From a virus, in the IMG/VR virus record IMGVR_UViG_3300023179_000019: a stretch of DNA of 64,000 nt; one strand, 5' to 3'. The notes beneath the pieces were generated by a model. It was not told where the DNA came from. It was given only the letters and a program-made list of their open reading frames with translations, and did not search any database. The position numbers were made by a program, and so were the translations under genes. Of the stretch, positions 33,461-33,565 are shown in pieces (position 1 is the first letter of the stretch; every line of letters begins with the position of its first letter).

Positions 33461-33489
33461 TTGACAAAGCGATATAAGTATAGTAGAAT
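33461..33489 (+). promoter_or_regulatory. sigma70 promoter
   Basis: TTGACA-17 nt-TAGAAT. Confidence 0.75.
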
Positions 33490-33498
33490 GATATAAAT

Positions 33499-33565
33499 GC
33501 GGTGTGTAATAGTACGGCGTAGGATTCCCTCTTACGTTACCTGAGCAAAGCAGAACACCGCTCCA
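33499..33565 (+). ncRNA. degenerate tRNA-Gly-like RNA (67 nt)
   Basis: Perfect GCGGTGT/ACACCGC acceptor stem plus TCCA; TCC at the loop centre; non-canonical D and T arms. Confidence 0.6.

Follow-up and report, generated by a model that had tools for sequence, protein, structure and literature searches.

In Staphylococcus aureus, the tRNA-Gly species NP1–NP3 are charged by glycyl-tRNA synthetase (GlyRS) and reserved for FmhB, FemA, and FemB, with the Gly-tRNA pool partitioned from EF-Tu (PMC7826273), a role for which an analog is only proposed here for a phage RNA. The Mom protein of phage Mu takes glycine from Gly-tRNAGly and transfers it to the N6 of adenine in double-stranded DNA (PMC13219725); it takes all three E. 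coli isoacceptors and refuses Gly-tRNAAla, and thus reads features at the 3′ end of the tRNA (PMC13219725). Published work describes DUF4338, the domain of the DruA family, as a GNAT domain (PMC10853773). Here, we analyzed 64,000 nt of viral DNA (IMG/VR record IMGVR_UViG_3300023179_000019; “the window” hereafter denotes this whole stretch) and found that positions 33499–33565 encode a 67-nt tRNA-Gly-like RNA, hereafter the mini RNA, which belongs to a real, conserved gene family. We propose, giving the idea roughly even chances, that this RNA is a non-decoding glycyl carrier reserved for a DruA/DUF4338-family protein (DruA-long) encoded in the same window.

A tRNA-Gly-like RNA missed by standard annotation

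The mini RNA gene and its parts, all on the + strand, are laid out as follows.

33499..33565, + strand, mini tRNA-Gly-like RNA gene, 67 nt (from fold, covariation, and covariance model R1)
33499–33505 with 33555–33561, acceptor stem
33506–33515, D-like hairpin
33516–33524 with 33530–33538, anticodon-like stem, loop UUCCC at 33525–33529
33541–33543 with 33551–33553, T-like stem, loop at 33544–33550
33562, U73
33563–33565, encoded CCA

The acceptor stem (GCGGUGU with ACACCGC) is perfect at seven of seven pairs, including G1-C72, C2-G71, G3-C70, and G4-C69, and is followed by U73 and the encoded CCA. The remainder consists of a D-like hairpin of 3 bp (GUA/UAC) with an AUAG loop and no GG, an anticodon-like stem of 9 bp, three of them G-U, whose 5-nt loop UUCCC carries UCC at positions 2–4, and a T-like stem of 3 bp (CUG/CAG) with a 7-nt loop, AGCAAAG, that lacks UUC. 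ViennaRNA's minimum-free-energy fold reproduces this cloverleaf-like architecture exactly, at −21.3 kcal/mol and with a z of −2.2 relative to shuffles. A first-pass annotation of the window had described a 67-nt RNA with retained glycine marks, a 7-bp acceptor stem, a D-like hairpin without GG, and a T-like stem without UUC, all of which our analysis bears out; it had also placed UCC in the loop of an 8-bp anticodon-like stem, of which the stem and the loop stand and the length is corrected to 9 bp.

No tRNA was called on the mini RNA by ARAGORN in its standard, mitochondrial, or relaxed modes, and an Rfam search up to an E-value of 10 returned zero matches across 33499–33565. Missed by standard tRNA and Rfam annotation, the mini RNA is therefore a candidate new RNA family. 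A blastn search of the mini RNA and its flanks against cultured phages gave only tRNA-Met or chance matches, and our literature search found no paper on this RNA family, nor on an RNA partner for DUF4338.

Conservation and covariation across uncultured aquatic phages

The family comprises at least 76 distinct sequences of 63–70 nt in uncultured aquatic T4-like phages, a total drawn from two pattern scans of IMG/VR and the R1 model. The first homologs came from loci fetched via the neighboring GroES protein and were elements of 64–70 nt with many compensatory substitutions; IMG/VR also holds one record 99% identical to the window. On R1, family members scored 44–73 bits (72.5 bits for the window RNA) and true tRNA-Gly genes at most 40 bits, the latter being the next-best matches after the members. 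Over 33 distinct sequences, pairing reached 87.9% of cells, compared to 66% in shuffles, and the covariation score was 0.58, compared to 0.20 in shuffles (0 of 500 reached the observed value) and 0.07–0.14 for slid partners, in an alignment that was fitted to the model and thus favors the structure. Double-sided changes were present in 16 of the 21 pairs. Homologs with compensatory changes, a check that the first-pass annotation had called for, were thus found, through both the covariance model and covariation over these 33 sequences.

Covariation supports the 7-bp acceptor stem, an anticodon-like stem of 7–9 bp, and the T-like arm, with both inner stems and acceptor pairs 5–7 covarying freely. 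The D-like hairpin covaries (GUA/UAC to GUG/CAC) only inside the subtype of the window; in other subtypes, the D region is an unpaired connector of 9–11 nt. The variable region of the family is 0–2 nt long. In about half of the loci, the mini RNA lies 5–7 nt after a tRNA-Gly(UCC) gene, and in the others it lies before tRNA-Gly(UCC) or behind its own promoter of the form TTGACA-17-TAnnAT. The mini RNA likely descends from tRNA-Gly(UCC), and the simplest history would be a duplication of this tRNA gene followed by shrinkage. From the tRNA-operon context, we infer that the mini RNA undergoes RNase P processing and 3′ trimming.

Glycine identity marks are kept and decoding features are lost

All 76 distinct sequences carry G1-C72, C2-G71, G3-C70, and G4-C69 (GCGG/CCGC), U73, and CCA, an invariance that is partly one of ascertainment, as GCGG/CCGC-UCCA was in the regular expression and the scan patterns; R1, which tolerates deviations, turned up no member without it. 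In the 33-sequence alignment, the closing pair of the T stem (G53-C61) is invariant, an A58-like A is found in 31 of 33 sequences, and one loop C is invariant, its neighbor being C as well once the loop subtypes are placed in register. By folding, a CC-containing loop is present in 74 of the 76 sequences, and the equivalent of wobble position 34 varies freely among U, A, and G, with A34 common. The identity set defined experimentally for E. coli and T. thermophilus GlyRS consists of U73, G1-C72, C2-G71, C35, and C36 (PMC9976931), and the 33 aligned sequences contain it, with invariant acceptor marks and CC in the loop.

The 7-nt anticodon loop is gone from the family. Most members have a 5-nt loop (GUCCA in 26, UACCC in 14, UUCCC in 10, and UGCCC in 8 of the 76), whose closing pair covaries (AU 13, GC 10, UA 4); a conserved U33 is lacking, and many members have C at position 37. 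U8, G18G19, and U55C56 are missing as well; the first base after the acceptor stem is G in 23 of 33 sequences, and in the T loop, 32 of 33 have G at position 2, whereas position 3 varies. Because the features read by bacterial GlyRS are retained, the host GlyRS probably loads the mini RNA with glycine, and because the elbow (G18G19, U55C56), U8, and the 7-nt anticodon loop are lost, it probably does not decode; both are predictions from sequence. A long continuous helix plausibly replaces the stack of D stem and anticodon stem and spaces CC and the CCA end much as in a tRNA. The loop, with its non-canonical length of 5 nt and its covarying closing pair, also disfavors a decoy for anticodon nucleases, another role that the first-pass annotation had considered.

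Recurrent placement of the mini RNA behind DruA-long

Two genes of the DruA/DUF4338 family were found in the window, both above the curated PF14236 cut-off of 27 bits.

17139..18404, + strand, DruA/DUF4338-family GNAT-fold gene, long form (DruA-long), 421 aa; PF14236, 80.8 bits
42732..43838, + strand, second, shorter DruA-family paralogue, 368 aa; PF14236, 34.5 bits; phrog_19197

In the window, DruA-long is part of a replication/recombination module (Mre11-like, 2-oxoglutarate (2OG) oxygenase, Rad50-like, peptide deformylase, DruA-long, MazZ-like deoxynucleoside triphosphate (dNTP) diphosphohydrolase, sliding clamp), whose order resembles that of Pelagibacter phage Mosig, and its start overlaps the stop of the peptide deformylase gene. 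We evaluated its linkage to the mini RNA by tblastn with DruA-long in 60 loci picked by RNA pattern and R1 alone, no protein being used in the selection. At 15 of the 60 loci, the mini RNA lies 23–139 nt downstream of the DruA-long gene on the same strand; one further locus (16 of 60) has it 547 nt downstream with an inserted gene between, and 4 more have it 7–10 kb downstream, again on the same strand. The open reading frames (ORFs) upstream of the RNA share a C-terminal ...KYL(G/P)QVGR motif with the window DruA-long, and both RNA subtypes were found in both contexts. A related-locus search with a 49%-identical DruA representative returned zero loci. Tandem pairs of differing mini RNAs stand directly behind DruA-long at three loci (L288, 4120–4259, − strand; L293, 4377–4516, + strand; L228, 287–430, − strand), the pair in L288 combining one UCCCC-type loop with one GUCCA loop. 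Of the 14 RNA-bearing records with a completeness of 60% or more, DruA is present in 13 and absent from 1, counts that are not phylogenetically independent; the discordant T4-like records are fragments of ~20 kb or less. Of the functions put forward in the first-pass annotation, a non-ribosomal glycyl donor is the sole one to have gained independent support, through this recurrent placement behind a DruA/DUF4338 gene, and it is retained as a candidate.

The short paralogue (42732–43838) is a possible second user of the mini RNA, by a weak link. Three cyanophages with the short paralogue only gave no family-level R1 match, their single match (27.5 bits, 75 nt) being in the range of tRNAs. Directly behind the window DruA-long, where other phages have the mini RNA, positions 18420–18767 (+ strand) contain a promoter-like site (TTGACA-17-TATAAT) and an ORF of 84 aa (18513–18767). 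Two genes past DruA-long, positions 19651–20001 (+ strand) encode a MazZ-like dATP/dGTP diphosphohydrolase (PF18909, 125.8 bits). PurZ (PF00709; PurZ-type adenylosuccinate synthetase), sought because of this MazZ-like neighbor, was absent in five related genomes, and there is thus no sign of a 2-aminoadenine genome.

A GNAT fold for DruA-long

A GNAT fold is supported for DruA-long by structural modeling. The AlphaFold model of the whole protein has a pLDDT of 95; a domain-only model (residues 100–380) has lower confidence (pLDDT 73) and does not separate Mom from generic GNATs. When compared to 48,161 chains with VIA-align, the full model had Mom at rank 1 (8bv8_B; Z 9.6, root-mean-square deviation (rmsd) 4.0, 169/202 aligned), closely trailed by generic GNATs (Z 9.5–8.6), and Mom was also at rank 1 for the domain-only model (Z 9.3, rmsd 4.2, 167 aligned; next match 8.9). 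FemA and FemX were weak generic GNAT-fold matches (Z 7.0–8.0), and no search for a Fem-family gene was made. Foldseek against the PDB gave weak GNAT matches only, with RimI at a probability of 1.00, and a PDB sequence search with DruA-long gave no match. In BFVD, Mom was the first named match (E 0.009), behind uncharacterized homologs, and the Pfam Mom profile PF25680 had no match in four genomes. By fold, DruA-long is matched best in BFVD by uncharacterized giant-virus proteins (Faunusvirus, Yasminevirus, Dasosvirus; E 6e-20 to 6e-10), and the family thus extends beyond phages.

Promoter and neighborhood of the mini RNA gene

The mini RNA gene is surrounded by the following features.

33461..33489, + strand, sigma-70-type promoter: −35 TTGACA at 33461–33466, 17-nt spacer, −10 TAGAAT at 33484–33489
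32702..32775, + strand, canonical tRNA-Gly(UCC), confirmed
33272–33347, canonical tRNA-Gly(GCC), confirmed
33587..33832, + strand, GroES-like co-chaperonin gene (Pfam Cpn10)

The promoter directly upstream of the RNA and the canonical Gly(TCC) tRNA gene at 32702, both of which had been noted in the first pass, are indeed present. The promoter (TTGACA-17-TAGAAT) is near-consensus, matching at 11 of 12 positions, ranks in the top two of the sites scanned over 4 kb, and has its −10 element 9 nt before the first base of the mini RNA; the same arrangement precedes the mini RNA in loci L004, L176, L155/L089, L106, L137, and L161. The mini RNA closes a cluster of ~20 tRNA genes, with a tRNA-Met gene (33366–33443) upstream and the GroES-like gene downstream. 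Since the GroES start codon comes just 21 nt past the CCA, the mini RNA and the GroES gene are probably co-transcribed, and this gene order is kept in at least 10 distinct loci.

Within the cluster, positions 31052–31121 (+ strand) score 42.8 bits on the Rfam tRNA model without an ARAGORN call and may be its 20th, atypical tRNA gene, and a 156-aa RNase H-like ORF (PF04308, YkuK-type; 32796–33266, + strand) lies between tRNA-Gly(UCC) and tRNA-Gly(GCC). Farther downstream, a 103-aa ORF without a Pfam family (33933–34244, + strand) comes right after a second tRNA-Met. At 34248–36106 (+ strand), a family-B DNA polymerase ORF ends at 431 aa, and the next ORF, of 177 aa, has an HNH-like C-terminus; a homing endonuclease may have split the polymerase gene.

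A proposed dedicated glycyl carrier and its alternatives

What the data show directly is the RNA family, with its structure, conserved positions, and promoter, and the way it is linked to the enzyme in the genome; the explanation we favor for these findings, though no better than an even bet, is a GlyRS-charged, non-decoding glycyl carrier reserved for the phage DruA-long. The mini RNA would be made from its own promoter or inside tRNA operons and trimmed in the fashion of a tRNA. As a miniaturized tRNA-Gly derivative whose D arm is gone, it would keep G1-C72, C2-G71, U73, and C35-C36 for bacterial GlyRS, along with a 12-bp acceptor/T minihelix ending in CCA. The host GlyRS would load glycine onto it, the loaded RNA would stay out of decoding, and it would serve as a private glycyl donor to the DruA/DUF4338 GNAT-fold enzyme encoded at 17139–18404. 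Such a scheme would parallel that of Mu Mom, from Gly-tRNAGly to DNA adenine, and that of staphylococci, whose Fem transferases are served by non-proteogenic tRNA-Gly. We infer that the mini RNA is charged, that it does not decode, and that the enzyme uses it, as well as what the acceptor molecule would be; DNA is our guess for the acceptor because DruA-long sits in a replication/recombination module. More tentatively, and at somewhat less than even chances, we suggest a two-part system of aquatic T4-like phages, in which a DUF4338/DruA GNAT-fold transferase and its own host-GlyRS-charged, non-decoding mini tRNA-Gly would pass glycine to phage DNA or another macromolecule.

Several observations weigh against the carrier proposal, including the partial ascertainment of the acceptor marks, the non-independence of the co-occurrence counts, and the generic GNATs close behind Mom, all noted above. 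In the window, DruA-long lies 15 kb upstream of the mini RNA (same strand), and the RNA is instead tied to the tRNA cluster and GroES. The same RNA class also occurs in a provirus (L287, G080; 2496–2564, − strand) and in a 100%-complete, GC-rich phage of 87 kb (L281, G084; 1821–1888, + strand), where it is flanked by gp32-like and RecA-like genes; neither of these has a PF14236, PF25680, or A5-profile match. Conversely, the cultured Pelagibacter phages HTVC008M and Mosig encode DruA-long (53–60% identity) with no R1 match; the enzyme thus does not need the RNA. As for Mom, the Foldseek match (8bv8_A) has an E-value of 0.05, with no PDB match at 0.001 or better, and both DruA paralogues lack a match to PF25680 (Pfam Mom) up to an E-value of 10, Mu Mom itself scoring 253 bits. 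An hhalign comparison of the DruA-long family to Mu Mom gave a probability of 1.4%; the sole piece aligned, 17 residues with a shared QRG[IV]Y motif in the essential insertion of Mom, is a hint only. A specific kinship between DruA-long and Mom is not established.

The RNA could alternatively be a decoy or sponge that absorbs toxins attacking the acceptor end of tRNA-Gly and thereby spares the decoding tRNA-Gly pool, which we consider possible but unlikely. Example toxins are the GNATs TacT and AtaT2, which acetylate Gly-tRNAGly, and the toxSAS FaRel2, which pyrophosphorylates the CCA end of tRNA-Gly. Such toxins read just that portion of the mini RNA which is invariant, namely U73 and G71 for TacT (PMC9976931) and G1-C72, C2-G71, G4-C69, and a purine-pyrimidine pair 5-68 for FaRel2 (PMC11559606). 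A toxin decoy would also be consistent with the strong promoter, with the two RNA-bearing genomes without detectable DruA, and with the invariance of G4-C69, a pair outside the cited GlyRS set. G4-C69 is typical of ordinary bacterial tRNA-Gly too, however, which counts against the decoy, and pair 5-68 is mostly U-A in the family (25 of 33) rather than the purine-pyrimidine pair preferred by FaRel2. Moreover, a stoichiometric decoy would be a weak answer to a multiple-turnover enzyme, and it leaves unexplained why the RNA stands on the same strand right behind DruA-long in 16 of the 60 RNA-selected loci. These linkage data would equally fit an RNA that controls the phage GNAT, be it as a tRNA-shaped inhibitor, an antitoxin-like regulator in the tRNA site, or a specificity guide, and GNATs acting on aminoacyl-tRNA are, according to PMC9177977, often toxic and in need of neutralizing. 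We nevertheless regard such a regulator as improbable: the conserved anticodon-like CC on a helix of tRNA-like length points to recognition by GlyRS and would not be needed by an enzyme that reads only the 3′ end, and the setting of DruA-long is a conserved module for replication rather than a mobile toxin-antitoxin cassette.

The spacing of 21 nt between the CCA and the start codon of GroES in the window, and the RNA-to-GroES order in at least 10 distinct loci, would also be expected of a processing or stability element, i.e., a tRNA-shaped mark for RNase P and 3′ nucleases that frees a GroES mRNA with a defined 5′ end. The chance of this is slim, since the RNA also stands behind DruA-long, ahead of tRNA-Gly, or with gp32-like and RecA-like genes on its two sides, and since punctuation needs neither invariant glycine marks nor a conserved CC loop. 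It is very improbable that the mini RNA is a decoding tRNA-Gly of unusual shape which supplements glycine codons in the style of D-armless mitochondrial tRNAs, although it retains a 7-bp acceptor stem, a T arm with G53-C61, an encoded CCA, and NCC in the loop, and although D-armless tRNAs decode in some mitochondria (PMC2797822). A Watson-Crick pair that covaries closes its 5-nt loop, no U33 is conserved, C37 is found in many members and A34 is frequent, canonical tRNA-Gly(UCC) and tRNA-Gly(GCC) genes are already encoded nearby, and the mitochondrial mode of ARAGORN makes no call. A T-box effector and a GlyRS sponge, the latter suggested in the first-pass annotation, were set aside, as they have no contextual support and the tRNA elbow is missing; nothing specific speaks for the sponge.

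Implications and comparison with known systems

If the mini RNA is indeed a glycyl carrier, dedicated non-proteogenic tRNAs would extend from staphylococcal cell-wall synthesis to viruses, and the family would reveal to what size a tRNA can be reduced and still be recognized by its synthetase. The very abundant but uncharacterized DUF4338/DruA family, which occurs in pelagiphages, cyanophages, freshwater myophages, and Druantia defense systems, would be tied to aminoacyl-tRNA chemistry, as for Mu Mom. Both the function of DruA-type proteins and a glycine-derived modification of DNA or protein in abundant aquatic phages would then become directly testable. Should the two-part system hold, it would provide the first known case of a virus with a dedicated aminoacyl-carrier RNA, as well as a biochemical clue to the role of DruA in Druantia defense.

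Among phage RNAs, rnaC and rnaD of T4 (species 1 and 2) are similar in being small stable non-tRNA RNAs in a T4-type tRNA cluster. They were rejected as relatives: they are 139 and 119 nt long, and R1 with its filters off gave 7 bits for rnaC and no match for rnaD, the best R1 match in the T4 tRNA region being the tRNA-Gly of T4 itself (29.3 bits). D-armless mitochondrial tRNAs and aminoacylatable viral tRNA-like structures are likewise truncated, keep an acceptor/T minihelix, and are possibly chargeable. The mitochondrial tRNAs differ in that they decode with 7-nt loops, whereas the phage RNA is a free-standing gene with a non-canonical loop; plant-virus tRNA-like structures are the 3′ ends of RNA genomes.

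On the protein side, one close system is the DruA of type I Druantia (DUF4338, PF14236), of which the window DruA-long is a family member at the sequence level. Druantia DruA is a component of bacterial defense, while the phage DruA-long occurs in modules for replication, with a tRNA-like RNA linked to it. Mu Mom (PF25680, PDB 8BV8) is, like the phage protein, a phage GNAT-fold enzyme, and is nominally its best structural match. However, Mom uses the ordinary tRNA-Gly isoacceptors of the host with no dedicated RNA, and DruA-long matches Pfam DruA rather than Mom, is twice as long, and has a match to Mom that is inseparable from those to generic GNATs.

The staphylococcal tRNA-Gly had been named as a precedent in the first-pass annotation, and this comparison holds as a functional analogy and fails as a structural kinship, NP1–NP3 being full-size cloverleaf tRNAs (PMC7826273). 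The likeness is that NP1–NP3 are tRNA-Gly paralogues beside decoding isoacceptors, with altered D and T regions (PMC7826273). They differ in being full-size, four-arm RNAs with 7-nt anticodon loops, which are cellular, restricted to staphylococci, and used by the Fem peptidoglycan enzymes (PMC7826273), whereas the phage RNA is 63–70 nt long, has no D arm, carries a 5-nt loop on a stem of 7–9 bp, is viral, and is linked to DUF4338. Overall, what we propose as new here is the combination of a dedicated non-proteogenic tRNA with tRNA-dependent GNAT chemistry.

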